DNA from: Spirochaetia bacterium
GTDB taxonomy: Bacteria; Spirochaetota; Spirochaetia; WTKD01; G963693115
Assembly: GCA_965226055.1 (NCBI GenBank)
Contig: CBDDCA010000006.1
Coordinates: forward strand, 704,001 to 768,000
Direction of reading: 5' to 3'
Length of the DNA: 64,000 nucleotides
In this document: piece after piece, positions 10,314 to 64,000 of the stretch
How positions within the stretch are numbered: the stretch's first letter is position 1
Layout of the letters: each line of letters starts with the position of its first letter
Notes under the pieces: generated by a model
The model's input: only the letters and a program-made list of their open reading frames with translations
What the model was told of the DNA's origin: nothing
Database searches by the model: none
Position numbers and translations under genes: made by a program

Positions 10314-10994
10314 ATTACTACTATCAATACATACATAGATCATACATTGCTCAAACAAGATACTAATGTTTCTCATTTATCATTCCATTGTAATCAAGCT
10401 ATTAAGCATAATTTTTATTGTGTTTGTGTAAATAGCTCTTATATACCATATGTTCGTACTATGCTTGATAGAACAAGTGTAAGAATATGTTCTACTGTTA
10501 ATTTTCCTTTAGGAGCCGCTTCTTTTCATGCGGTATGTGAAGAAGCAGTGCAAGCAATAAAAGACGGAGCGGATGAGATAGATACCGTTATGAATATATC
10601 ATTCTTAAAGTCAGGATACAAAGAAAAGATATTGAAAGATCTCATGATATTGCGTTCTGTTACAGAAGGAAAAGTCTTAAAGGTCATTCTTGAAACCTGT
10701 CTTCTTACGCAACAGGAAAAAATAACAGCGTGTGAAATATGCTGTGAAGCAAAAGTAGATTTTGTAAAAACATCTACAGGCTTTAGTACTGGAGGTGCTA
10801 CCCTAGAGGATGTAGCACTAATGAAGAAGCATACAGAACACTCATCAGTTAAGATTAAGGCTTCTGGAGGAATACGAGATTATAATACAGCATTACAATT
10901 TATTGAAGCAGGTGCTTCGCGTATTGGTACGAGTAATGGTGTTGTAATTGTTACAGGGGAAAGTACAGCTGTTAATGATAGCAGTATCTATTAG
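10314..10994 (+). CDS. deoC: Deoxyribose-phosphate aldolase, probable non-canonical ATT start
   Basis: YIDHTLLK lies upstream of the track TTG; also GADEIDTV, LKVILETC, FVKTSTGF, KASGGIR, RIGTS. AGGAGG RBS at 10301-10306. Confidence 0.92.
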   Translation: MTTINTYIDHTLLKQDTNVSHLSFHCNQAIKHNFYCVCVNSSYIPYVRTMLDRTSVRICSTVNFPLGAASFHAVCEEAVQAIKDGADEIDTVMNISFLKSGYKEKILKDLMILRSVTEGKVLKVILETCLLTQQEKITACEICCEAKVDFVKTSTGFSTGGATLEDVALMKKHTEHSSVKIKASGGIRDYNTALQFIEAGASRIGTSNGVVIVTGESTAVNDSSIY

Positions 10995-11006
10995 GGAGAG
11001 GTAGGT

Positions 11007-11432
11007 GTGCCATCAATGATATCAAAGGATAGTATTGCTATTCTTATGGAAAAAGCACTTTCTGTTCGTCAGTATGCTCATGCTCCTTACTCTCATTTTA
11101 CGGTAGGAGCTGCGTTGTTGGGGGATGATAACATCTATTATGTAGGAGTAAATGTTGAAAATGCTTCTTATGGATTAGGGATATGTGCAGAAAGAAATGC
11201 TATTTTTAGTGCAAAGACACAGGGCATGCAGTATATACAGTCTATTGCGGTAGTAGGACAGACAAATGATGTTATAAGTCCTTGTGGAGCATGTCGTCAG
11301 ATTATTGCAGAGTTTAGTAACAGTGACACTACCGTTATATTAGGGAATGACAAAGGAGTATATAGACTGTACTCTATAGAAGAAATAATTCCATTTGCGT
11401 TTACTCTCAATGTTTCAAAAACAGAAGAGTAA
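11007..11432 (+). CDS. cdd: Cytidine deaminase
   Basis: APYSHFTVGAAL, NVENASYG, CAERNA, PCGACRQ. Confidence 0.95.
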   Translation: MPSMISKDSIAILMEKALSVRQYAHAPYSHFTVGAALLGDDNIYYVGVNVENASYGLGICAERNAIFSAKTQGMQYIQSIAVVGQTNDVISPCGACRQIIAEFSNSDTTVILGNDKGVYRLYSIEEIIPFAFTLNVSKTEE

Positions 11433-11623
11433 AAAAGGCTTCAGCAAATATCAAAAAAAGAAGGTATTCTCTTTCTTTTTTGTGTATTATATTATATATT
11501 GTTTTCGCAGATATAGTGTAAGATGTGTTTTACTTATACTCTTATAGAGTGTATTCTTTTTTTCTCCTTGAACTCGCAATAATACATTACATAAATGAGT
11601 TATATAAAAATGTAAAAAAAATT

Positions 11624-11637
11624 GGGGGGGGGGGGGG
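11624..11637 (+). repeat. Poly-G tract (G14) upstream of the giant lipoprotein promoter
   Basis: 14 consecutive G in otherwise very AT-rich intergenic DNA. Confidence 0.9.
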
Positions 11638-11662
11638 TAAAGCAATAAAATGTGTAAAAATA

Positions 11663-11692
11663 TTGCTATAAAAAAGAAAATACTGCTATAAT
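11663..11692 (+). promoter_or_regulatory. Sigma70-like promoter of the giant lipoprotein
   Basis: TTGCTA, 18-nt spacer, TATAAT preceded by TGC (extended -10). Confidence 0.6.
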
Positions 11693-11748
11693 AAGGAGTG
11701 TAAGGATGATGAGCAATCATCATATAAATAAAAAATATGGAGGTCCAT

Positions 11749-14700
11749 ATGAACCAAAAAAATAATAAGAATCATGCAAGAGGCATAAAGAATAGATATA
11801 TCGTGTTAGGGGCGATACTACTGATGATGGTAGTGGGAAGTTGTGAGGAGCCTGAAAGTAGCAGTAGCTCACCGTCAGCACCACCAGTACCACCGCCACA
11901 GGCAGTACTGTCATGGGAAGAATTGTATAAGCAAGAAGAGAAGCTGGTAGTATTATTTTCTGATCCGCTTGCGTCTTATGAAGCAAGCAAGATAGTAATC
12001 AACAAGACAGTAAAAGGAGGGACAGCAAGTAAGCTGGCATTGACAAAGGACTATACGCTAAAGCTGGAAGGGAAAACGCTTGTGATAACATTCACAAAGA
12101 AAGTAGAGAAAGAGGAGATGTATGCAGTGCAGATACAAGCAGGAGGAGTAAAGAGTACCGCAGGCAAGACAAATGAGCGATCAGAGGATAAGCGAGTAAC
12201 GATAAACAAGGAGCCTGAGCTAGAGATAGGGCTATGGTATATAGATCCTACAGGAGGCAAGAAAATAATAATAACATTTAATGAAGAAGTAAGGATACTG
12301 GATGCGAGCAAGATAAAGGCGCAAAAGAAGGAAGCAGACAGCTATGCAGATATAGAGGTATCATCAGTAGCAGTAAAAGAAGCAGATAAGAGTCAGTTAG
12401 AAATAGAATTAAAAGAAGGAGCAAAAGCCCAAGAGAAATACAAGGTGATCATAGAGAAAGGAGGAATAAAAGGAGCAACAGAAGGAAATGCGACCAGATG
12501 GGAAACAGGAGAGATAGAGTATCAACAAAATCCATTACAGGAGCAGGCAGTATATATAGTAGGAAAAAAGATAACAGTAGTATTTGGGATAGCATTAAAA
12601 AGTATAGAAGCATCCAAGATAAAAGTGAAGAAAAAGCAAGGAGAAAACTATGAAGAGTTGACAGTGTCTGAGCTTCCCGATATAAACAAGAAGATAAATA
12701 AGGAGCAAAAGAAGCACTTAGAGTTAGAATTAGGACAGGCTCCCAAGCAAGGAGAGGTGTACCGCATAGCTTTTGAAGCAGGAGCGTTGACAGATATAAG
12801 CAATCAACAAAGTGGGCAGAGAGAACCGACCGATAAGGACATAGAGATAAACGGGGGCCCGGTACTAGATAGCAGCAAAGATCCGTATATAGTAGGCAAA
12901 GAGATAACAGTAGCGTTTGATAAAGAATTAGTACTGCTGGATACGAGCAAGATAAAGGTACTGAAGCAAGCATCAGGCGGATCAGTCTTTAGTGAATTAG
13001 ATGCGACAGCCTTGCCCGAAGCAAATAAAGTACTGAATGGGAGTGATAAGAAACTATTAGAGCTGACACTATCAGAAACAGAAACGATACAAACAGGAGA
13101 CAAGTATAGGATACAGCTGGAAGCAGGAGCAGTAAGAGATACCGATGAAGGAAATGCAGAGATTTCACCGACCGATAAGGACATAGAGATAGAGGAAAAG
13201 CCTGAGTTATCTCCAGAGGGTCCGTACATAGTAGGCAGAGAGATAACAGTGAGTTTTGCAGGAGCAGTAACGCTGCTGGATGCGAGTAAGGTAAAAGTAT
13301 TGAAGCAATCAGGAGGAGCATCTAATTTTACAGAGGTGTCGGTGAGTAGTGTAGTATTGGACAGCAATGATACAACAAAGCTAAAAGTGACAATACCAGC
13401 GACACAGACAGGAGAAACCTATAGGATAAAGATAGAACCAGGAGCAGTAGAGAATGGGAACAAGAAAGCCAATGAAGAGCTAGCGCCAACGGATAAGGAC
13501 ATAATGATAACAGGAGGAGCAGTATTAGATACAAGCAAAGATCCGTATATAGTAGGCAAAGAGATACGAGTGTTCTTTACAAAAGCTATAGCATTCCTCG
13601 ATAAGAGCAAGGTAAAAGTATTGAAGCAAGCAGTAGGAGGATCAACCTTTAGTGAATTAAATACGACAGCCTTACCCGAAGCAAATAAAGTGATCAATAG
13701 CAGTGATAAGAAGCAACTAGAGCTGACACTTGTAGGAACAGTACAGACAGGAGAAACGTATAGGATAAAGCTAGAAGCAGGAGCAGTACTCTCTGAGAAT
13801 GAAGGAAATGCAGAGATTTCACCGACCGATAAGGACATAGTGATAACAGGAGGCCCGGTACTAGATAACAGTAAAGATCCATACATAGTGGGCAAAGAGA
13901 TAACAGTAATGTTTGATAGGAATGTGGAGATACTGGATAAAAGCAAGATACAAGTACTAAAGCAAGGAGCAGGAGAGTCAAAATTTAGTGCATTAAATAC
14001 CACTGCGTTGCCCGAAGCAAATAAAGTACTCAATGGAAGCAATAAGAAACAACTCGAACTGACGCTTGTAGGAACAATACAGACAGGAGACAAGTATAGG
14101 ATAAAGCTAGAAGCAGGAGCAATACGAGATACCGATGAAGGAAATACAGAGCTCGCACCAGAAAATAAGGACATAGAGATAACAGGAGGCCCGGTGCTAG
14201 ATAACAATCAAGCCCCGTACATAGTAGGCAAAGAGATAACAGTGACATTTGATAAAGCTATAGCATTCCTCGATAAGAGCAAGATAAAAGTATTGAAGCA
14301 AGCAGTAGGAGGGTCAACCTTTAGTGAATTGAATACGACAGACTTGCCCGAAGCAAATAAAGTACTCAATGGGAGTAATAAGAAACTACTCGAACTAACG
14401 CTTGTAGGAACAGTACGGACAGGAGAAACCTATAGGATAAAGCTGGAAGCAGGAGCCATACTCTCTGAGAATGAAGGAAATGCAGAGATTTCACCGACCG
14501 ATAAAGACATAGTGATAAAGGAGAATCCTGTGTTAAATAATAGTATCCCCCCGTATATAGTAGGAACTGTGATACGAGTAATCTTTGATAGAGTGGTAAG
14601 CATAGAGGACAAGAGCAAAATAAAAGTGCAGAAGAAAGCATCAGGAGGCACATTTACAGAGCTGGTAGTATCAGGAAGTAATAAAGAACTGGACACAGAT

Positions 14701-17700
14701 AAAAAGATACTAAAAATAACAATACCGTCTCCGACAACAGGAGACACATATAGGCTAGAATTGGAAGCGGGGGCTGTGAGTGCGAATGGGAGAGACAATG
14801 AGGCAATAGCACCGACCGATAAGGACATAGTAATAACAGGAGGCCCGGTACTAGATAGCAGCAAAGATCCGTATATAGTAGGCAAAGAGATACGAGTGTT
14901 CTTTACAAAAGCAATAACATTTTTGGATAAGAGCAAGGTAAAAGTATTGAAGCAAGCAGTAGGAGGCTCAACCTTTAGTGAATTGAATGCGACAGTATTG
15001 CCCGCAGCAAATAAAGTAATCAATAGCAGTGATAATAAGCAGTTAGAACTGACGCTTGTAGGAACAGTACGGACAGGAGAAACCTATAGGATAAAGCTGG
15101 AAGCAGGAGCAGTAAAAGATGCAAGTGAAGGAAACGCAGAGATCTCACCAACAGGGAAGGATATAGTGATAAGCGGAGGCCCGGTACTTGATGGAAATGT
15201 TACCTTAGCAAGTAAAGTGATAACAGTAACATTTGATAGAACAATAACAATAGTATCAAAGAAGAAAATAAAAGTACTCAAGAAAACAACAAGCGAAGTG
15301 AGCTATAAAGAAGTGAGTACCAGTGAATTACCGGAAGCCAATAAACAAAGGGCAGGAGGGAATGACAAGCAGCTGAAGTTGACGTTGGTAGGAACATTGA
15401 GAAACAACGATAGCTACAGAATAGCACTAGAGGCAGGAGCAGTGAAAGACACAGATGAAGGGAATGCAGAGCTAGCACCAACAGATAAAGATGTAGTGGT
15501 AACAGGAGGAGCGATGCTTGATGGAAGCAAAGCAATGTCAGTAGTAGGAAAAGAGTTTACCATACCGCTGGATAAAGTAGTGAGCATAGAGGATAAGAGT
15601 AAGATAAAACTGAAGAAGCAAGCAGTAGGAGGAAGTGCATTTATTGACTTAACTGACAGTGAATTACCAGCAGCGAACAAAGGATTAGTATCATCAAACA
15701 ATGCGTTGAAGCTAACTGTAGCACAGACCCCCACGACAGGAGAAACCTATAGGATAGAGCTAGAAGCAGGAGCAGTAAAAGCAGCAGGAGATATACTCAA
15801 TGATACGATAGCGCCAACGAACAAGGATATAGTGATAAGTGGCGGTCCAGTACTGGATAGCAGTACAGATCCATATATAGTGGGAGCAGTGATACTAGTG
15901 AGTTTTGATAGCACTATAACAATCATAGATAAAGATAAGATAAAAGTGCAGAAGAAAGCATCAGGAGGCACATTTACAGAACTGGATGATACAGCAGTAC
16001 CAGATAATAGTATAGTAAAAGATACGAACAATGCGAAAGTGCTAAAAATAACAGTACCAACCCCAAAGAAGAATGACACCTATCGCTTAGAGTTTGAAGC
16101 AGGAGCGGTATCCTCTGGAAATGAAGGAAATAGAACAATAGCACCGACCGACAAGGATATAGTGATAGCAGGAGGAGCAGTATTAGATACAAGTAAAGAT
16201 CCGTATCGAGTAGGAACAGTGATAATAGTGAGCTTTGATAAGAATATAGCATTTTTAGATAAGAGCAAGATAAAAGTGAAGAAGCAGGCAGTAGGAGGAA
16301 GTTCGTATACCGATGTGGCAGTATCGGGGAGTAATATAGCAAAAGATACGAATGATGAGAAAGTGCTAAAAATAACAGTGCCAACCCCACAGAATAAAGA
16401 GAAGTATCGCTTAGCATTTGAAGAGGGAGCCTTGCTCTCTGGGAAAGAAGGAAATGAGGCAATAACCCCGACAAATAAGGACATAACGATAGGAGATGGC
16501 CCTGTGTTGAGTGCAGGAACGAAGCTGAACGTAGCAAAGAAAAGGGTATTAGAAGTATCGTTTCCTGTAGAGGTAGAGCTCATAGCCCCAGATAGTATAG
16601 TGGTATCTAAAAAAGCAAAAGGAGGAAGTTTTAGTCCCTTAGGAACTTCCGATAGGACGATAGCAGTGGATAGTACCGATGAAAAGAAGATACAGATTAC
16701 GCTCACTAAAAGTGACTTAGCACAAGACGAGACATGGAAAGCAGAGTTTCCCGCAGGAACAGTATTAGGAGTAGCAAGTAGAAATGGAAATAGTACTAGT
16801 CAAATAACAGGAGAATATACGATAGATGATATATATGATTTGTACACATGGAAGCAACTGGTTACCAGCAATGAGGATCCTAAAAAGACGGGTATTTGGA
16901 ATAAACGTGAAAGACTTGGTTCTGTAGTGTTTAAGAATAGAATATGGGCATTGGGAGGAAACGATAGTAATGATAATTTTCTTAATGATGTATGGAGCAG
17001 TGCTGATGGGCAGGTATGGAAAGAACATACCACGAGTAACGAAGATAAAACAAGTACTATTTGGAGTAAACGTCAAGAGCTTGGTTCTGTAGTGTTTAAG
17101 AATAGGATATGGGTTATGGGAGGGATTGAGGATCCTTATATTGCACTTAATGATGTGTGGAGCAGTGCTGATGGAGAAGTATGGAAAAAGCACACCACGA
17201 GTAACAAAAATGGAACAAATACTATTTGGAGGGGACGTGCCCTATCAGCTGTGGTGGTATTTCAGAATAAGATCTGGATTATAGGAGGATACGAATCCCC
17301 TGATAGTCATCTCACTGATATATGGAGCAGTGCTGATGGGAATGTATGGGAAGAGCATAGTATAAGCGATTCTACCGGTGATAATACTAAATTATGGGGA
17401 CAAGCTGGTTATCCTTATAGTATTGTAGAGTTTAAGAGTAAGATATGGGTTATAGGAGGATACGACAAGAGCAAGACAGATTTTAGTAATAATAACATAT
17501 GGAGCAGTACTGATGGGATTGTATGGAAAAGGCATACTACAAGTTCAATTTGGGCTGATGGTCGTCACAATTTTACCTCTTTGGTGCTTGATAATAAGAT
17601 GTGGGTTGTTGGAGGTTCTACTGTTAAGGATAATGGTAATGATATATGGAGTAGTGCTGATGGAGAAGTGTGGAAAGTACATAGTGCTACCATAAACCAT

Positions 17701-17811
17701 AAAGAAATTCACAACTATGCTGCTGAGGTATTCAAGAACAAAATCTTTTTGCTAGGGGGATTTATAGAGAATTTTAAAGAAATCGATGATGTTTGGACAT
17801 TTCCCAACTAA
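11749..17811 (+). CDS. Giant surface lipoprotein with ~15 tandem Ig-like repeats and a C-terminal six-bladed Kelch-like beta-propeller
   Basis: GGAGGT RBS before ATG 11749; lipobox MVVGSC; Ser/Pro linker; ~110-aa repeats (GGPVLD..DPYIVGKEI.V.FD...YRI.LEAGAV...PTDKDI); six repeats of VFKNRIW..GG...NDVWSSADG..W. Confidence 0.85.
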   Translation: MNQKNNKNHARGIKNRYIVLGAILLMMVVGSCEEPESSSSSPSAPPVPPPQAVLSWEELYKQEEKLVVLFSDPLASYEASKIVINKTVKGGTASKLALTKDYTLKLEGKTLVITFTKKVEKEEMYAVQIQAGGVKSTAGKTNERSEDKRVTINKEPELEIGLWYIDPTGGKKIIITFNEEVRILDASKIKAQKKEADSYADIEVSSVAVKEADKSQLEIELKEGAKAQEKYKVIIEKGGIKGATEGNATRWETGEIEYQQNPLQEQAVYIVGKKITVVFGIALKSIEASKIKVKKKQGENYEELTVSELPDINKKINKEQKKHLELELGQAPKQGEVYRIAFEAGALTDISNQQSGQREPTDKDIEINGGPVLDSSKDPYIVGKEITVAFDKELVLLDTSKIKVLKQASGGSVFSELDATALPEANKVLNGSDKKLLELTLSETETIQTGDKYRIQLEAGAVRDTDEGNAEISPTDKDIEIEEKPELSPEGPYIVGREITVSFAGAVTLLDASKVKVLKQSGGASNFTEVSVSSVVLDSNDTTKLKVTIPATQTGETYRIKIEPGAVENGNKKANEELAPTDKDIMITGGAVLDTSKDPYIVGKEIRVFFTKAIAFLDKSKVKVLKQAVGGSTFSELNTTALPEANKVINSSDKKQLELTLVGTVQTGETYRIKLEAGAVLSENEGNAEISPTDKDIVITGGPVLDNSKDPYIVGKEITVMFDRNVEILDKSKIQVLKQGAGESKFSALNTTALPEANKVLNGSNKKQLELTLVGTIQTGDKYRIKLEAGAIRDTDEGNTELAPENKDIEITGGPVLDNNQAPYIVGKEITVTFDKAIAFLDKSKIKVLKQAVGGSTFSELNTTDLPEANKVLNGSNKKLLELTLVGTVRTGETYRIKLEAGAILSENEGNAEISPTDKDIVIKENPVLNNSIPPYIVGTVIRVIFDRVVSIEDKSKIKVQKKASGGTFTELVVSGSNKELDTDKKILKITIPSPTTGDTYRLELEAGAVSANGRDNEAIAPTDKDIVITGGPVLDSSKDPYIVGKEIRVFFTKAITFLDKSKVKVLKQAVGGSTFSELNATVLPAANKVINSSDNKQLELTLVGTVRTGETYRIKLEAGAVKDASEGNAEISPTGKDIVISGGPVLDGNVTLASKVITVTFDRTITIVSKKKIKVLKKTTSEVSYKEVSTSELPEANKQRAGGNDKQLKLTLVGTLRNNDSYRIALEAGAVKDTDEGNAELAPTDKDVVVTGGAMLDGSKAMSVVGKEFTIPLDKVVSIEDKSKIKLKKQAVGGSAFIDLTDSELPAANKGLVSSNNALKLTVAQTPTTGETYRIELEAGAVKAAGDILNDTIAPTNKDIVISGGPVLDSSTDPYIVGAVILVSFDSTITIIDKDKIKVQKKASGGTFTELDDTAVPDNSIVKDTNNAKVLKITVPTPKKNDTYRLEFEAGAVSSGNEGNRTIAPTDKDIVIAGGAVLDTSKDPYRVGTVIIVSFDKNIAFLDKSKIKVKKQAVGGSSYTDVAVSGSNIAKDTNDEKVLKITVPTPQNKEKYRLAFEEGALLSGKEGNEAITPTNKDITIGDGPVLSAGTKLNVAKKRVLEVSFPVEVELIAPDSIVVSKKAKGGSFSPLGTSDRTIAVDSTDEKKIQITLTKSDLAQDETWKAEFPAGTVLGVASRNGNSTSQITGEYTIDDIYDLYTWKQLVTSNEDPKKTGIWNKRERLGSVVFKNRIWALGGNDSNDNFLNDVWSSADGQVWKEHTTSNEDKTSTIWSKRQELGSVVFKNRIWVMGGIEDPYIALNDVWSSADGEVWKKHTTSNKNGTNTIWRGRALSAVVVFQNKIWIIGGYESPDSHLTDIWSSADGNVWEEHSISDSTGDNTKLWGQAGYPYSIVEFKSKIWVIGGYDKSKTDFSNNNIWSSTDGIVWKRHTTSSIWADGRHNFTSLVLDNKMWVVGGSTVKDNGNDIWSSADGEVWKVHSATINHKEIHNYAAEVFKNKIFLLGGFIENFKEIDDVWTFPN
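12853..16500 (+). repeat. Tandem ~330-bp intragenic repeats (Ig-like units), several with long near-identical DNA stretches
   Basis: Recurrent blocks such as ccgaccgataaggacata and gatccgtatatagtaggcaaagagata. Confidence 0.9.
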
Positions 17812-58397: not shown

Positions 58398-58533
58398 AAG
58401 AATACGGCAATGGATGAGGAAAGTAGAAATTTAGATGAGAGGCTTATATCGTTTTACCGTGATATATTGTCTGTATTTGAGCGATATAATATCAATGGTC
58501 ATATAGAGTGGGAAGAATAAAGAGCATCTTTAA

Positions 58534-58941
58534 TTACTCAAGCGGTGATAATTTTGTATCTTTATCTTTGTAAAACTCTTTTACTTTCTCATTTACCCAA
58601 TCACTGTGTGTCCAGTCATGTAATTTTTTGAGTGTGTACCCTACTACTGCCAAATCGTCAAGCCATCCAACAAAAGGTATTGCATCTGGTATTAAATCAA
58701 AAGGAAATACTACATACCCTAACGCTGCAATGCAAAAAATCTTGCTTGTACTGTCAATATCAGGATGTTTCATTACAAAGTATAGTCGTACAAACGGCTC
58801 ACTTACTTTTCTTGGGAGTTTTTTTACTAATTTTTCAAACTTCCCTTCATCATAGTATTTTTCATATTTTTCGTGATTTTTCTCAAAATGATCTGTATGT
58901 TCTTTTTTCTTCTCTTCTGTGTATTCTTCTTCTTTATCCAT
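58534..58941 (-). CDS. YkvA/DUF1232 family protein
   Basis: AALGYVVFPFDLIPDAIPFVGWLDD. Confidence 0.88.
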   Translation of the reverse strand: MDKEEEYTEEKKKEHTDHFEKNHEKYEKYYDEGKFEKLVKKLPRKVSEPFVRLYFVMKHPDIDSTSKIFCIAALGYVVFPFDLIPDAIPFVGWLDDLAVVGYTLKKLHDWTHSDWVNEKVKEFYKDKDTKLSPLE

Positions 58942-58947
58942 AATAGT

Positions 58948-58977
58948 ATTATACTGGATGAGCATATGTGTTGTCAA
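58948..58977 (-). promoter_or_regulatory. Sigma70 promoter of the DUF1232 gene (leaderless)
   Basis: TTGACA, 18 nt, TATAAT, 6 nt, ATG on the minus strand. Confidence 0.65.
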
Positions 58978-59011
58978 TGTTTTTTTACTTTTTGAATGAT
59001 ATTTTTGACAA

Positions 59012-59739
59012 GGGGCTGACCCATTTAATGAAAATTAGACTAACCCAGCCTCCTGTACCCAATTATACAACACTTTATACATGTTTGTGATTGGTCTATA
59101 ATTAAACCGAAATTCACATTCTTTGAGATACAGCTCAAAATGGTTTTTCGGTATTCCATTGTATCTTCTCAGATGCCTCTTTGATTGATTCCAAAAATTC
59201 TCTATTCCATTTATATGATTTTGCTTGTGTGCAAATTCCTTTGCATGATTTATGCGATAGTGTTGAAAGTCTGATACATCCAATATATTATAACTCGGAG
59301 AGGTATCTGTATAGATAATACTCTGAGGAGCTACTTTTTTCTTTATGATACTATAGAGTGTGCAAGTTGTTGTATTACTTACTGTTAGTGCATGCACCAT
59401 AGCTATTTCTTTTATATAATCCAAACACTATTGTTTTTCCTCCTGCTCCTCTGCCTCGCTTTCCTTTTTGTTTTCCTCCAAAATAACTTTCATCTATTTC
59501 TATTTCCCCTGAAAGTGCTATTTCATATTCACTGAGCTTTTCTCTTATAATACACCGTAATTTATGATACCACGATATACTTGTTTTTTTATTTATTCCT
59601 AGAAGCAATGCTGCACTTCTTGCTGGTGTTCCTGCTACATAATGTTCTATTATTCTTTTTACTATGATATGTGATAATCTTGTTTTTCTCATGCCTATTC
59701 TTTTAGAATAGCCTTTTTTCTCTTATCTGGGTCAGCCCC
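59012..59739 (-). mobile_element. IS1595-family (IS1016-like) insertion sequence, 728 bp
   Basis: Terminal IRs GGGGCTGACCCA / TGGGTCAGCCCC; 8-bp target duplication TTTGACAA at 59004-59011 and 59740-59747. Confidence 0.92.
59035..59692 (-). pseudogene. IS1595-family transposase, frameshifted near 59400
   Basis: EIDESYFGG..KGKRGRGAGGK in one frame; IYTD, HINGIENFW, YLKECEFRFN in another. Confidence 0.85.
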
Positions 59740-59740
59740 T

Positions 59741-59768
59741 TTGACAATATGTGGAAAGTCTGTATAAT
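59741..59768 (+). promoter_or_regulatory. Consensus sigma70 promoter at the head of the tandem array
   Basis: TTGACA, 16-nt spacer, TATAAT. Confidence 0.65.
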
Positions 59769-59841
59769 TAAATAGGGAGTACTGTTTACTAATTTGCTTA
59801 AATGTAATCAGCTTCTTGAATTAAATACAGAGGAGGGTTTT

Positions 59842-60390
59842 ATGAGTAAACCTAAAAAAGAGATGTTATTGTTGGCTGTGCCTCCTAATTGTGGTAAAAC
59901 ATTCACGATTAATTTGCTATATAATAAATTGAAGCAATTTAATGAAAAAGAACAAGATACTTCTAAATGGAAGTATGATAAACTAGCTCCAAAATCTAAA
60001 GAAGAGTTTCAAAACATAGAGGATAAAAAATATGAAAATCAAGATGAAGAGGGAGATATTCAAGAAACAGTAAAAATCAATGGCATAACTATTGGTTTTG
60101 CTAGTGCAAGTGATGATCCTGATCTGATTGATGCGAATATGGAGTTTTTTGAAGAAAAGAAATGTAATATTTGTATTACAGCTTGTTCTTGTGATGGAAT
60201 ATTAGGTAAAAGACAAGGAAAATATCCAACAGAGAGCATACAAAAAATATTAAAATTTGCACAAAAACATGAATACTGTATCTCACCATTTGATTTCATG
60301 GGTATGGATAAAGAGCATGATAATGATTATTGTAACAACGAAAAAGCAAGAATGATGTTTGATAGATTAAAATATCTTTTATCCGTGTAA
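59842..60390 (+). CDS. Small P-loop-like protein, array copy 1
   Basis: GAGGAGG RBS; LLLAVPPNCGKT; INGITIGFAS; CNICITACSC. Confidence 0.8.
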   Translation: MSKPKKEMLLLAVPPNCGKTFTINLLYNKLKQFNEKEQDTSKWKYDKLAPKSKEEFQNIEDKKYENQDEEGDIQETVKINGITIGFASASDDPDLIDANMEFFEEKKCNICITACSCDGILGKRQGKYPTESIQKILKFAQKHEYCISPFDFMGMDKEHDNDYCNNEKARMMFDRLKYLLSV

Positions 60391-60584
60391 AGTCTAATCA
60401 GTATCCGAGAACAGTAAAGGAAAAATAAAAAACTCCATTTTTGCAAAAATTCTGCACTATATTCTTATATCTTTGATACGGTAACACGAGACAGTGAAAG
60501 TACAGTATAATTAAATAGGAAGTATTGCTTACTAATTTGCTTAAATGTAATCAGCTTCTTGAATTAAATACAGAGGAGGGTTTT

Positions 60585-61127
60585 ATGAGTAACCCTAAAA
60601 AAGAGATGTTATTGTTGGCAGCGCGTGATAGAAGTGGGAAAACATTCACGATTAATTTGCTATATCATAAATGTATGCAATTTAAACAAGATATGTCCAT
60701 ATCAGATTATGATAAACTAGCTCCAAAATCTAAAGAAGAGTTTCAAAAAATAAAGAATGCAGAGTATAAAAATCAAGATGAAGATGGAGATATTCAAGAA
60801 ACAGTAGAAATTAATGGCATAACTATTGGTTTTGCTAGTAAAGGTGATTATCCTAATGATATTAAAAAGAATATTAAGTTTTTTAAAGAAAATGGATGTG
60901 ATATTTGTATTACAGCTTGTTCTTGCCTTGGAATAATAGGTAAAGGACGAGGAAGGAAAAAAGAGATGATACAAAAAATATGGGATTTTAAGGAAAAACA
61001 TAAATACTGTATCTCACAATTTGATTTCACAGGTGTGGAATATCATGATGATGAGTATTGTTACGACACTAACAACGAAAAAGCAAGAATGATGTTTGAT
61101 AGATTAAAATATCTTTTATCCGTGTAA
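60585..61127 (+). CDS. Small P-loop-like protein, array copy 2
   Basis: GAGGAGG RBS; LLLAARDRSGKT matches [AG]x4GK[ST]. Confidence 0.8.
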   Translation: MSNPKKEMLLLAARDRSGKTFTINLLYHKCMQFKQDMSISDYDKLAPKSKEEFQKIKNAEYKNQDEDGDIQETVEINGITIGFASKGDYPNDIKKNIKFFKENGCDICITACSCLGIIGKGRGRKKEMIQKIWDFKEKHKYCISQFDFTGVEYHDDEYCYDTNNEKARMMFDRLKYLLSV

Positions 61128-61321
61128 AGTCTAATCAGTATCCGAGAACAGTAAAGGAAAAATAAAAAACTCCATTTTTGCAAAAATTCTGCACTATATT
61201 CTTATATCTTTGATACGGTAACACGAGACAGTGAAAGTACAGTATAATTAAATAGGAAGTATTGTTTGCTAATTTGCTTAACTGTAATCAGCTTCTTGAA
61301 TTAAATACAGAGGAGGGTTTT

Positions 61322-61867
61322 ATGAGTAAACCTAAAAAAGAGATGTTATTGTTGGCTGTGCCTTCTAATTGTGGTAAAACATTCACGATTAATTTGCTAT
61401 ATAATAAATTGAAGCAATTTAATGAAAAAGAACAAGATACTTCTAAATGGAAGTATGATAAACTAGCTCCAAAATCTAAAGAAGAGTTTCAAAAAATAAA
61501 GGATGCAGAGTATGAAAATCAAGATGACTGGGGAGATATTCAAGAAACAGTAACAATCAATGGCATAACTATTGGTTTTGCTAGTGCAAGTGATGAACCT
61601 TATCTGATTGATGCGAATATGAAGTTTTTTGAAGAAAAGAAATGTGATATTTGTATTACAGCTTGTTCTTGCCTTGGAATATTAGGTACAGGACGAGGAA
61701 AGAAAAAAGAAATGATACAAAAAATAAGGGATTTTAAGGAAAAACATAAATACTGTATCTCACAATTTGATTTCATGGGTATGGATAAAGAGCATGATTT
61801 TGACTACTCTAACAACGAAAAAGCAAGAATGATGTTTGATAGATTAAAATATCTTTTATCCGTGTAA
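61322..61867 (+). CDS. Small P-loop-like protein, array copy 3
   Basis: GAGGAGG RBS; LLLAVPSNCGKT. Confidence 0.8.
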   Translation: MSKPKKEMLLLAVPSNCGKTFTINLLYNKLKQFNEKEQDTSKWKYDKLAPKSKEEFQKIKDAEYENQDDWGDIQETVTINGITIGFASASDEPYLIDANMKFFEEKKCDICITACSCLGILGTGRGKKKEMIQKIRDFKEKHKYCISQFDFMGMDKEHDFDYSNNEKARMMFDRLKYLLSV

Positions 61868-62060
61868 AGTCTAATCAGTATCCGAGAACAGTAAAGGAAA
61901 AATAAAAAACTCCATTTTTGCAAAAATTCTGCACTATATTCTTATATCTTTGATACGGTAACACGAGACAGTGAAAGTACAGTATAATTAAATAGGAAGT
62001 ATTGTTTGCTAATTTGCTTAAATGTAGTCAGCTTCTTGGATTAAATACAAATGAGGTTTT

Positions 62061-62573
62061 ATGGATAAATCTAAAAAAGAGATGTTGGTATTGGCTATGC
62101 CTCCTAAACATGGTAAAACATTCACGATTAAATTGTTATATGATAAATTAGAGCGATTTAATAGATCTGAAAAAGATATTTCTAACTTGAACTATGATAA
62201 TCTAAAACCAGAATACGGATCGGAAGAATTTCAAGAAATAAAGTATAAAAAACATGGTCGAAACAAAGAGATTCTAGAAGCAATAAAAATCAATGGCATA
62301 ACTATTGGTTTTGCTAGTGTAAGTGATACCTGGTATGAGATTAGAGATAATATGAAGTTTTTTGAAGAAAAGAAATGTAATATTTGTATTACAGCTTGTT
62401 CTTGTATGGGATTACTAAGAGATGGAAATAAACAAAAAATAATATTAGATTTTGTAAAAAAGCATAGATACGGTATTTCGATATTTAATTTTAGAGGTGT
62501 AGATGATTACTATCGTAACAACGAAAGAGCGAGAATAATGTTCGATAGATTAAAGTATCTTTTATCTGTGTAA
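62061..62573 (+). CDS. Small P-loop-like protein, array copy 4 (most divergent)
   Basis: GAGG RBS; LVLAMPPKHGKT. Confidence 0.8.
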   Translation: MDKSKKEMLVLAMPPKHGKTFTIKLLYDKLERFNRSEKDISNLNYDNLKPEYGSEEFQEIKYKKHGRNKEILEAIKINGITIGFASVSDTWYEIRDNMKFFEEKKCNICITACSCMGLLRDGNKQKIILDFVKKHRYGISIFNFRGVDDYYRNNERARIMFDRLKYLLSV

Positions 62574-62764
62574 ATTTTGATGAGAAAGCCAAACAGTAGA
62601 GGAAAAATAAAAAGCTCCATTATTGCAAAAATTTTGCAGTATATTCTTATATCTTTGATACGGCAACAAGATGGTAAAATTACAGTATAATTAAATAAGG
62701 GAGTATTGTTTATTAATTTGCTTAAATGTAATCAGCTTCTTGAGTAAATATAAAGGAAAGTTTT

Positions 62765-63304
62765 ATGAGTAAATCTAAAAAAGAGATATTATTATTGGCT
62801 GTGCCTGCTAACAGTGGTAAAACATTCACGATTAATTTGTTATATAATAAATGGATGAAATTTAAACAAGATATGTCCATATCAGATTATGATAAACTAG
62901 AACCAAAATCTAAAGAAGCGTTTCAAAAAATAAAGAATGCAGAGTATAAAAATCAAGATAAAGATGGAGATATTCAAGAAACAGTAGAAATTAATGGCAT
63001 AACTATTGGTTTTGCTAGTAAAGGTGATGAACCTGATGCTATTCGAAAGAATATTAAATTTTTTAAAGAAAATAAATGTGGTATTTGTATTACAGCTTGT
63101 TCTTGTGATGGAATATTAGATAAAAGACAAGGGAAAGATACAAAAGAGCGTGTACAAAAAATATTAGATTTTGAAGAAAAACACAAATACTGTATCTCAA
63201 CATTTGATTTCATGAGTGTGGATGAAGAGCATGACAATGACTACTGTAACAATGAAAAAGCAAGAATGATGTTTGATAGATTAAAGTATCTTTTGTCCGT
63301 GTAA
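62765..63304 (+). CDS. Small P-loop-like protein, array copy 5
   Basis: AAGGA RBS; LLLAVPANSGKT. Confidence 0.8.
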   Translation: MSKSKKEILLLAVPANSGKTFTINLLYNKWMKFKQDMSISDYDKLEPKSKEAFQKIKNAEYKNQDKDGDIQETVEINGITIGFASKGDEPDAIRKNIKFFKENKCGICITACSCDGILDKRQGKDTKERVQKILDFEEKHKYCISTFDFMSVDEEHDNDYCNNEKARMMFDRLKYLLSV

Positions 63305-63435
63305 ATTTTGATAAGAAAGCCAAACAGTAAGAGGAAAAATAAAAAATTCCATAGTTTAAATATATTTGCACTATAGTATTGTATGCTTATATAGACAACG
63401 AGATAGTAAAACTCCAAAAAAATCCTTATTTTTGC

Positions 63436-63465
63436 TTGACATAGCATAAACAAACACAATATAAT
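63436..63465 (+). promoter_or_regulatory. Sigma70 promoter of rplM-rpsI
   Basis: TTGACA, 18-nt spacer, TATAAT. Confidence 0.65.
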
Positions 63466-63534
63466 ATATTCCATAGTGGAGACTTATGTTTAATGATATA
63501 GGTACACTAAATAGTAGATACAAGGTACAAGGAT

Positions 63535-63978
63535 ATGCTAGACCAAAAAACTATATTTATTCCCCCAAGCAAAGTAGTGCGTAAGTGGTATCTCATTGAT
63601 GCGAAAGATAAAGTATTGGGAAAAGTAGCAGTGGAAATTGCTCGATTAGTACGTGGAAAACACAAAGCTGAGTTTACTCCTCACCAAGAGATTGGTGATT
63701 ATGTGGTAGTTATCAATGCAGACAAGGTAAAGCTCACTGGTAACAAAGAAACACAGAAAATGTATCACCGACATAGTGGGTATCCCGGTTCTCTGAAATC
63801 AGAGAATTATAAAAGATTGAACGATAGAAAGCCTGGCTATCCCTTAGAGCTAGCAATTAAACGCATGTTGCCAAAAAATAAACTTGGCAATAAACTGTTT
63901 ACTAATGTTAAGGTATATGCAGGAGAGCCTAATCCTCTCCCTCATATAGCACAGAAACCAGAAAAATACGAGGTATAA
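63535..63978 (+). CDS. rplM: 50S ribosomal protein L13
   Basis: RKWYLIDA, GKHKAEFTPH, GDYVVVINA, HSGYPG, MLPKNKLG. Confidence 0.97.
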   Translation: MLDQKTIFIPPSKVVRKWYLIDAKDKVLGKVAVEIARLVRGKHKAEFTPHQEIGDYVVVINADKVKLTGNKETQKMYHRHSGYPGSLKSENYKRLNDRKPGYPLELAIKRMLPKNKLGNKLFTNVKVYAGEPNPLPHIAQKPEKYEV

Positions 63979-63979
63979 T

Positions 63980-64000
63980 ATGGAACAGAGTTCTTTTGGT
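63980..64000 (+). CDS. rpsI: Probable 30S ribosomal protein S9, 5' fragment
   Basis: ATG 1 nt after the rplM stop (MEQSSFG...); called from conserved rplM-rpsI synteny only. Confidence 0.55.

Follow-up and report, generated by a model that had tools for sequence, protein, structure and literature searches.

A tandem array of five diversified small P-loop proteins from an unnamed family in a Spirochaetia bacterium

Here we describe an array of five tandem paralogous genes, which we call c1 to c5, at positions 59842-63304 on the plus strand of a 64,000-nucleotide stretch of DNA (the window) from a Spirochaetia bacterium (assembly GCA_965226055.1, contig CBDDCA010000006.1). According to structure models, the encoded proteins of 170-182 amino acids are minimal P-loop nucleoside triphosphatases (NTPases) of kinase-like fold, and they belong to a family that has neither a name nor a model in the libraries that we searched. 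We read the array as a genus-specific expansion of this family, in which a constant nucleotide-binding core and a constant last helix carry a variable periphery that has been recombined between the copies, and in which the proteins would have an NTP-dependent, accessory and probably conflict-related function. To this reading as a whole we give roughly even odds (about 0.5), and the conflict-related role taken alone is much less certain than that. The fold, and tandem paralogs shuffled by gene conversion, are of known kinds.

Five tandem copies and their counterparts in a sister species

What has been repeated is a whole unit of about 735 bp, made up of a gene and a spacer that is itself conserved. 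Start-to-start distances run from 701 to 746 bp and spacers from 191 to 194 nt, every spacer retains a TATAAT and a ribosome-binding site, and the gap between c5 and the downstream gene rplM is a diverged sixth copy of the spacer. The original prediction, which was made from the letters of the window alone, listed five intact paralogs of 170-182 amino acids, each with a ribosome-binding site, and this stands: all five frames are open on the plus strand, with zero stops and zero frameshifts, and a purine-rich, Shine-Dalgarno-like stretch lies about 5 nt 5′ of each ATG (GAGGAGGG in c1-c3, weaker in c4 and c5). The list of open reading frames (ORFs) also has longer frames initiated at TTG, which come from reading through the conserved leader upstream of the genes. 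Identity to c1 is 60-85%, and the copies have 94 invariant amino-acid columns, within which fall all of the shared blocks that had been picked out beforehand (GKTFTI, INGITIGFAS, C.ICITACSC and NNE.AR.MFDRLKYLLSV). Rfam gave no match in window 58400-64000, and a hairpin predicted in the leader shows no covariation.

The genome from which the window comes (2.25 Mb in 6 contigs, a metagenome-derived assembly) contains these five copies only. Such an assembly might stitch the variants of several strains into a false tandem array, and the short-read contigs of all runs do break within the array, but we hold an artefact of this kind to be highly improbable. In a sister species of the same genus, whose genome was assembled independently into a single contig, three tandem copies (g1-g3) stand in the same place, directly upstream of an rplM whose product is identical to that of the window and which is followed by rpsI; this genome is the only one of 40 relatives that has the family. 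Run X1 is probably the source sample, and its contigs show zero differences from any of the five copies. Word depth in the X1 contigs is not a copy number and so gives a weak hint; its values are 11-12.5 over copy-specific pieces compared with 9.5-12 over the flanks (~1x), 17.9 over a piece common to two copies (~2x), and 29.1 over a piece common to three (~3x).

There are hints that the copy number differs between strains. A second assembly, with a 25,557-bp contig, encodes c1-, c4- and c5-like proteins and has no member in the c2 or c3 clusters; outside the assembly of the window, c1 has a 98% identical counterpart (P0002). The contigs of runs X5, X6 and X7 have nothing on 60457-61765, where c2 and c3 lie, and none of them crosses the gap, which is not evidence of absence. 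Repeat collapse during short-read assembly is an alternative cause of the missing members in the second assembly.

On a tree of 26 sequences, the eight copies from the genus form one clade on a long stem (support 100/100), from which it follows that the array arose within this genus. Two ortholog pairs across the species stand out on the same tree, c2-g1 (support 98/95) and c4-g2 (support 100/100), and synonymous divergence (dS) is 0.22-0.45 between types compared with 0.14-0.19 between orthologs. The two species split after the three copy types had formed, and the genome studied here has c1 and c3 in addition.

A minimal P-loop fold and a family without a name

The AlphaFold model of c1 is a single alpha/beta domain, three-layered around a central parallel sheet, with a predicted local distance difference test (pLDDT) of 85.9. 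Its elements are, in order, a strand (residues 7-11), the P-loop, a helix (19-36), an insert, two strands (73-79 and 82-87), a helix (93-105), a strand (110-114), a helix (129-142), a strand (146-150), and a last helix (162-181). Among 48,161 solved chains, the c1 model matches a designed P-loop fold (Z 8.5), the APS-kinase-like protein 2yvu (8.3; APS, adenosine 5′-phosphosulfate), the human NTPase 2i3b (8.1), and the Mycobacterium tuberculosis APS kinase (8.1), and Foldseek against the PDB with the same model returns nothing at E <= 0.001. A model of a core-family protein, P0013, built on an alignment of 126 sequences, reaches a pLDDT of 94.1 and matches APS kinase 4rfv (Z 9.4, root-mean-square deviation 3.1 over 109 residues), 2yvu (9.0), and 2i3b (8.3), with fungal RNA kinase (7.0), THEP1 (6.8), and then adenylate, gluconate and polynucleotide kinases further down the list. 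Foldseek places P0013 at probability 1.0 with designed P-loop folds and 2yvu and at 0.99 with the PFKFB kinase domain, with E just above 0.001. Since a Z of 8-9 barely exceeds the values of unrelated models in the same structure search, our claim is limited to the fold class and extends to no kinase family. With GKT kept in 5/5 copies and a predicted fold that is that of P-loop kinases, the earlier description of the proteins as P-loop-like is borne out. A complex prediction for a homodimer scored 0.07, against a mark of 0.42, and gives no answer in either direction.

The Walker A core, G18-K19-T20 in c1, is invariant in 5/5 copies, and its G and K are found in at least 90% of 126 family sequences. 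The only fully invariant column in those 126 sequences is D91, four residues past strand 3, which by its position would be the magnesium-binding acidic residue (the Walker B or its kinase equivalent). In order along the chain, the consensus of the family reads x-N-x-G-K-T-T, then I-G-x-x-S/T-x-G-D, then N-x-x-F-F-x-x-x-x-C-x-I-x-I-T-A-x-R-T-x-G, and N-x-x-x-A in the last helix. All five copies retain G18, K19 and T20 of the Walker A, D91, C108 ahead of strand 4, T113 and A114 within it, G119 past it, and N165 where the last helix begins, and the family profile recovers them with E-values of 1e-49 to 1e-55. Compared with the consensus they carry an additional insert of about 36 residues (37-72) past helix 1, and they read S-C-x-G in place of R-T-x-G, in a C-S-C-x-G stretch, after which comes an inserted loop rich in Lys, Arg and Gly (115-128).

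Around strand 4 the copies have four invariant cysteines in a C-x-x-C-x-x-x-C-x-C pattern (c1 residues 108-117, window 60163-60192). Three cysteines are found at this place in the close subfamily and one in Bacteroidia members, and the cluster, which may be a metal or redox site, causes weak ferredoxin-like NCBIfam hits. Separately, the N-terminus of c1 and c3 (basic residues, a hydrophobic run, and Cys17) looks slightly like a lipobox. We dropped the idea of a lipoprotein: c2, c4 and c5 lack the Cys, and the hydrophobic run is just 6 residues long and is strand beta-1 of the predicted fold.

The original prediction could not assign the family, and it can now be placed: the copies belong to a widespread but unnamed P-loop family of about 140 amino acids that is single-copy elsewhere. 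HMMER, run with a profile built from 11 sequences, returns 1359 cluster representatives at E <= 0.001, 126 of them at E <= 1e-10, mostly 135-170 amino acids long. Among the 120 hits listed by a second search, 11 have names, of which eight read "hypothetical" or "uncharacterized" and three are generic automatic P-loop names. The relatives with names belong to Porphyromonas, Prevotella and Alloprevotella, from dense host-associated communities. The family is sporadic, and a genome that has it almost always has one copy. It occurs in 9 of 301 Bacteroidia genomes (eight with one match, one with two unlinked matches) and in 13 of 400 genomes of other Spirochaetota, with one match each, which answers the suggestion that homologs be checked for arrays: outside the genus they are almost always alone, and arrays have so far been found only in this genus. 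Two relatives, P0024 (246 amino acids) and P0117 (287 amino acids), consist of two tandem fused copies of the family domain.

Libraries of known families and structures gave only generic resemblance. Pfam, NCBIfam and PADLOC return sub-threshold P-loop hits alone for the copies; Pfam's APS_kinase is not listed for any of the five at E <= 1, and the likeness to that family is one of fold only. Thirty members scanned against Pfam give scattered weak P-loop hits, and a PADLOC scan of five relatives gives no match. Against PDB sequence profiles, a profile of the five copies returns tetratricopeptide-repeat noise, and the family profile returns FtsY/SRP54 at E ~1e-3, which we read as generic P-loop similarity. 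PHROGs yields 2 stray single-member hits for 34 family members, and the viral library BFVD yields only generic polynucleotide kinases and Ras-like proteins, at E >= 0.007. No match was found by tblastn of c1 against 50,697 phage records or of P0013 against 72,556 plasmids, and no relative came up when IMG/VR and JGI metagenome contigs were scanned for patterns from a seven-sequence alignment. The ESM Atlas has only unnamed clusters rich in Bacteroidota, and a word-indexed search found, besides proteins of the genus itself, only one metagenomic protein with 37% identity. Full-text literature searches, supplements being outside them, found no description of the family.

Selection, segment exchange and a possible role

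When the two species are compared, six flanking genes have a dS of 0.139 and an omega (the ratio of nonsynonymous divergence, dN, to dS) of 0.078, and three ortholog pairs from the array have a dS of 0.137-0.188 and an omega of 0.42-0.55 (dN 0.057 and dS 0.137 for c2-g1; dN 0.091 and dS 0.188 for c4-g2). Because dS is the same and omega is higher, the array proteins evolve 5-7 times faster than those of their neighbours. As the original prediction had supposed, the copies are kept by selection, and they are not dead duplicates. When random substitutions are simulated up to the divergence between types, the frame stays open in 0.12-0.16% of simulations (P ~0.001). We also set omega classes by the structure model, and not by variability, over the three independent ortholog pairs and compared each class with neutral: the strands have an omega of 0.32 (p 0.007) and the last helix 0.19 (p 0.0009), and the departures from neutral are not significant for helices 1-3 (0.57), the insert (0.65), or the loops after strands, which we call the top loops (0.97). 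The 94 invariant amino-acid columns still have a synonymous divergence (pS) of 0.197, so they are held by purifying selection and not by homogenisation.

Differences between the copies are likewise unevenly placed. Variable residues make up 26 of 37 positions in the loops after strands, 25 of 36 in the insert, and 31 of 66 in the helices, compared with 8 of 28 in the strands and 4 of 21 in the last helix. Alpha/beta nucleotide-binding folds bind their ligands along the C-terminal edge of the sheet, and the substrate-binding and lid elements of P-loop kinases are the segment past helix 1 and the loop past strand 4. The variable parts are therefore those that would be expected to face a second substrate or a partner, and by the counts variation is concentrated where such folds bind their ligands. 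This pattern fits specificity variants, and it fits drift at the surface as well.

Segments have also moved between the copies. Along the unit alignment, c3 differs from c1 at 1 of 215 columns (54-268) and from c2 at 5 positions over columns 416-552, where c1 has 27 differences; c2 and c5 differ at 2 of 129 columns (240-368) and are widely different elsewhere; and the 3′ end and spacer are identical in c1, c2 and c3. In a permutation test that used 225 polymorphic sites, each of the three c1/c2/c3 pairs reaches p <= 0.0002, and c2-c5 reaches p = 0.0008. From these mosaic segments and this test we infer that gene conversion or unequal crossing-over is active in the array.

Some indication of a role comes from relatives outside the genus. 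Of 24 loci of these relatives, eight have defence, toxin-antitoxin or mobile-element genes no more than about 1.5 kb away. One of the eight, in a Bacteroidia genome (locus L025, 4970-10752), has GajA and GajB (PADLOC E-values 3e-249 and 1e-193), then a family member of 147 amino acids that starts 16 nt behind GajB, and then an adjoining gene of GmrSD/HEC-06 type; the small gene could be the third gene of a Gabija variant or just a neighbour. The others have SIR2-HerA, an AAA_15/21 ATPase, a Pol-beta nucleotidyltransferase, AbiEii with a CI-type repressor, a D12 methylase with a PD-(D/E)XK transposase, and, at two loci, integrases. The remaining 16 of the 24 lie among housekeeping, surface-protein or unassigned genes. 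At one Spirochaetota locus (L032, 1501-1908), the family member has an internal TAA, overlaps the end of a radical-SAM/SPASM gene, and adjoins an AAA_15/21 ATPase.

Under the reading that we favour, each copy would bind NTP with its constant core, and the variable loops together with the 36-residue insert would form the site for a second substrate or a partner. With such an array the cell would have one NTP-dependent activity in several versions, whether that activity is phosphotransfer or an NTP-driven switch, and the role might lie in defence against mobile elements or in detoxification. We think the role is probably accessory and conflict-related because the family is sporadic, because a third of the examined relatives lie beside defence, toxin-antitoxin or mobile genes, and because the array proteins evolve so much faster than their neighbours.

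Several observations weigh against this reading. No window has an omega significantly above 1, the highest being 2.2 (c1-c2 codons 61-110, p 0.24), and the pooled sliding windows in which omega exceeds 1 rest on non-independent pairs; positive selection is for this reason not demonstrated, and relaxed constraint at the surface accounts equally well for the variation. The Walker A motif is incomplete, the first Gly of GxxxxGK[ST] being absent in all copies (position 13 is V, A, V, M and V in c1 to c5), as it is in many relatives, though it is present in Bacteroidia members, and past strand 4, where the R-T-x-G of the family has its Arg, all eight copies of the two species have Ser. Two of the three sister-species copies, g2 and g3, are altered at otherwise invariant positions: g2 has the Walker A Gly replaced by Ala and its C-terminal tail replaced by a new tail of 12 residues, and g3 has a 21-codon in-frame deletion that removes the conserved Asn of the last helix. 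These lesions lie within 10730-11769 of the sister-species locus (L009), where the g2-g3 spacer has shrunk to 14 nt. PADLOC-DB 2.0, with which c1, c2 and c4 were scanned, has no convincing match, only PtuA to c1 (18.1 bits, E 3.6e-4) over the P-loop region. The array itself stands outside any defence island, as judged from about 25 kb of Pfam-scanned sequence upstream and from rplM downstream. Finally, the defence-neighbour count has no control, concerns distant relatives, and includes five loci that were extended after a first look gave hints, so that the defence-like surroundings are a lead.

The main rival, which we regard as unlikely, takes the copies for plain duplicates under relaxed constraint, that is, for an amplification (by dosage or by drift, in a small host-associated genome) that is diverging and decaying with only the fold and the nucleotide site kept. 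It draws on the near-neutral rates in the top loops and the insert, on the lesions in two of the three sister-species copies, and on a copy number of 5 in one assembly and 3 in the other, with only c1-, c4- and c5-like proteins in the second assembly mentioned above. The original prediction itself named neutral evolution of the variable blocks as grounds for refuting its "selected repertoire", and since these blocks cannot be told from neutral, such a repertoire is no more than possible. Yet three types predate the species split and all frames are open here against a chance of about 0.001, half of the residues are invariant despite a synonymous divergence of 0.2, and pure dosage would favour near-identical copies over ones as diverged as these.

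Another possibility is that the array neutralises toxins or antibiotics, either in the manner of polyimmunity or as a set of small resistance kinases, with each copy directed at a different incoming toxin or antibiotic. Tandem, diverged, small cytoplasmic paralogs without a toxin are what the passages on polyimmunity loci in PMC3482391 describe, the fold lists contain chloramphenicol phosphotransferase (Z 6.0-6.2) and the tunicamycin resistance protein (Z 5.7), and the dense communities from which the named relatives come would suit such a function. In the same fold lists, however, many unrelated P-loop kinases come before the resistance kinases, the copies match no known immunity family, and relatives elsewhere are single-copy and not beside toxins. 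There is no polymorphic toxin gene in the 25 kb scanned upstream, the downstream side not being Pfam-scanned and the rest of the genome not searched. We consider this explanation improbable, and the immunity or antitoxin function that had been proposed at the outset is unsupported, since Pfam and the upstream scan turned up neither a toxin nor a known immunity family.

We give a small probability to a stand-alone, innate-immunity-like repertoire, whose loops would recognise different invader ligands or proteins, with NTP binding as the switch and new specificities arising through segment shuffling. If true, such a repertoire would parallel on a small scale, in a bacterium, the NTPase receptor genes that cluster and recombine in plants, and it would be drawn from an undescribed family. 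The proposal of an anti-phage sensor depends solely on the surroundings of distant relatives, however, and the array itself lies among housekeeping genes. Immunity NTPases of ParA type, as described in a preprint (bioRxiv 10.64898/2026.10.19.760177), were considered as a model and set aside as not applicable, the deviant Walker A of ParA being absent.

Surroundings of the array and comparison with known systems

Upstream of the array are the housekeeping genes pheS, pheT, groEL and gcvT-H-P, followed by a DUF1232 gene and an insertion sequence (IS), and downstream is rplM (Table 1). All 21 Pfam-scanned ORFs in the roughly 25 kb upstream are housekeeping genes or without family, and this agrees with the earlier statement that no enzyme or transporter partner stands beside the array. 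That no recombinase partner is adjacent holds in part: an IS1595-family element with a split transposase does lie directly upstream, but in contigs of three other studies 59004 is followed directly by 59741, which makes the element a strain-specific insertion outside the array. IS-related copies in the runs of other studies have a 1-nt difference at 59397, and the rest of the genome has only two long relatives of the element, 79-85% identical. A recent foreign origin of the array was considered and dropped, the GC content at third codon positions being 0.20-0.24 in the copies and 0.20-0.31 in the neighbours.

Table 1. The array and the features next to it, in window coordinates
Feature	Position	Strand	Description
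IS1595-family element	59005-59740	-	736 bp; transposase split into two overlapping ORFs, 59375-59692 and 59035-59424
Candidate promoter of the array	59741-59768	+	sigma-70-type promoter-like site; TTGACA, 16 nt, TATAAT; 12/12 matches; 74 nt 5′ of c1
c1	59842-60390	+	182 aa (amino acids); predicted minimal P-loop NTPase; AF2 (AlphaFold) pLDDT 85.9
c2	60585-61127	+	180 aa; ortholog of sister-species g1 (first copy)
c3	61322-61867	+	181 aa; mosaic, 5′ half c1-like, middle of 3′ half c2-like
c4	62061-62573	+	170 aa; most diverged type; ortholog of sister-species g2
c5	62765-63304	+	179 aa; counterpart of sister-species g3; near-identical middle segment common with c2
Conserved spacers with leader	60391-60584, 61128-61321, 61868-62060, 62574-62764	+	
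Diverged spacer before rplM	63305-63534	+	
Second promoter-like site	63436-63465	+	perfect TTGACA/TATAAT; before rplM

The site that we take as the candidate promoter of the array starts at the very first base past the IS insertion point. No terminator-like sites were found on the plus strand, and transcription may run from this consensus site before c1 through the array and possibly on into rplM-rpsI.

This arrangement suggests one more explanation, in which the copies would be GTPase-like factors linked to translation, acting with the ribosome and co-expressed with rplM-rpsI. The array is directly upstream of rplM on the same strand in both species, with no terminator-like site found; the Walker A region resembles that of Era-type GTPases; one relative, P0010, passes the cut-off of PF01926 (29.2 bits, cut-off 21.9), the only one of the thirty members scanned to do so; and several relatives carry a precomputed label of "50S ribosome-binding GTPase". 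The copies themselves stay well below that cut-off, with 13.8 bits for c1, 12.7 for c3, and no hit for c2, c4 and c5, and NKxD, the guanine-specificity motif of GTPases, is conserved neither in the copies nor in the family alignments. Moreover, rplM has a consensus promoter of its own, no ribosomal-protein gene is the immediate neighbour in scans of the 24 relatives' loci, and the structural matches favour kinases over GTPases. We regard a ribosomal role as quite improbable.

Two giant genes may be mentioned in passing. The window encodes, at 11737-17811 on the plus strand, a surface-type protein of 2024 amino acids with Big_5 and Kelch repeats, and in the sister species a surface-type repeat protein of 2616 amino acids (L009, 1126-8976) stands just left of the array, so the synteny on that side is not conserved.

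The array draws attention to an unnamed but widespread family of very small P-loop proteins, with about 1,400 cluster representatives, none of them covered by Pfam, NCBIfam or PADLOC, and it points to a lineage, so far the only one found, where amplification and recombination of the family have taken place. The two species together supply eight natural variants on one constant scaffold, a resource for asking what the family binds. If the loops set specificity, this would be a compact way of building a repertoire by gene conversion in a cytoplasmic enzyme, and not in a surface antigen; if they do not, it would be a clean case of surface drift on a minimal nucleotide-binding fold whose core is held.

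Among proteins of known function, the closest in fold is APS kinase (CysC; 4rfv and 2yvu), at Z 9.4 and 9.0 with the core-family model and 8.3 for c1 with 2yvu. The two share a parallel sheet of five strands together with strand 1, the P-loop and helix 1. P-loop kinases have a D-G-D region past the next central strand, and the invariant Asp of the family is in a like place. The family differs in having no Pfam match, in its length of 135-180 amino acids, and in lacking the lid and substrate-binding elaborations of the kinases. Human NTPCR (2i3b) and THEP1 (1ye8) are also single-domain P-loop proteins of similar size without partner domains (Z 8.1-8.3 and 5.6-6.8), but they show no sequence similarity in the searched libraries, and they are conserved single-copy genes, not variable arrays. 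Era-type GTPases (PF01926) share the Walker A strand and helix, and one relative passes their cut-off, whereas the copies fall below it and the family has no conserved NKxD; the Ras-like domain also has one beta-alpha unit more than the predicted secondary structure of the family.

In its organisation the array resembles the polyimmunity loci of Zhang et al. 2012 (PMC3482391), which the relevant passages of that paper describe as tandem paralogous genes for diverged small intracellular proteins that can lack a neighbouring toxin gene. The array shares with these the tandem paralogous small genes; measured against the same passages, it differs in that its product is a P-loop NTPase and not SUKH or another immunity family, in that no toxin was found, and in that the family is single-copy in other lineages.

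Gabija and SIR2-HerA islands offer a different kind of comparison. The family matches no PADLOC model and the studied array stands outside such islands, but some distant relatives are inside them, the one behind GajB at a distance of just 16 nt. With relatives that recur beside Gabija, SIR2-HerA and AbiE, the family is a reasonable candidate for defence-island screens.

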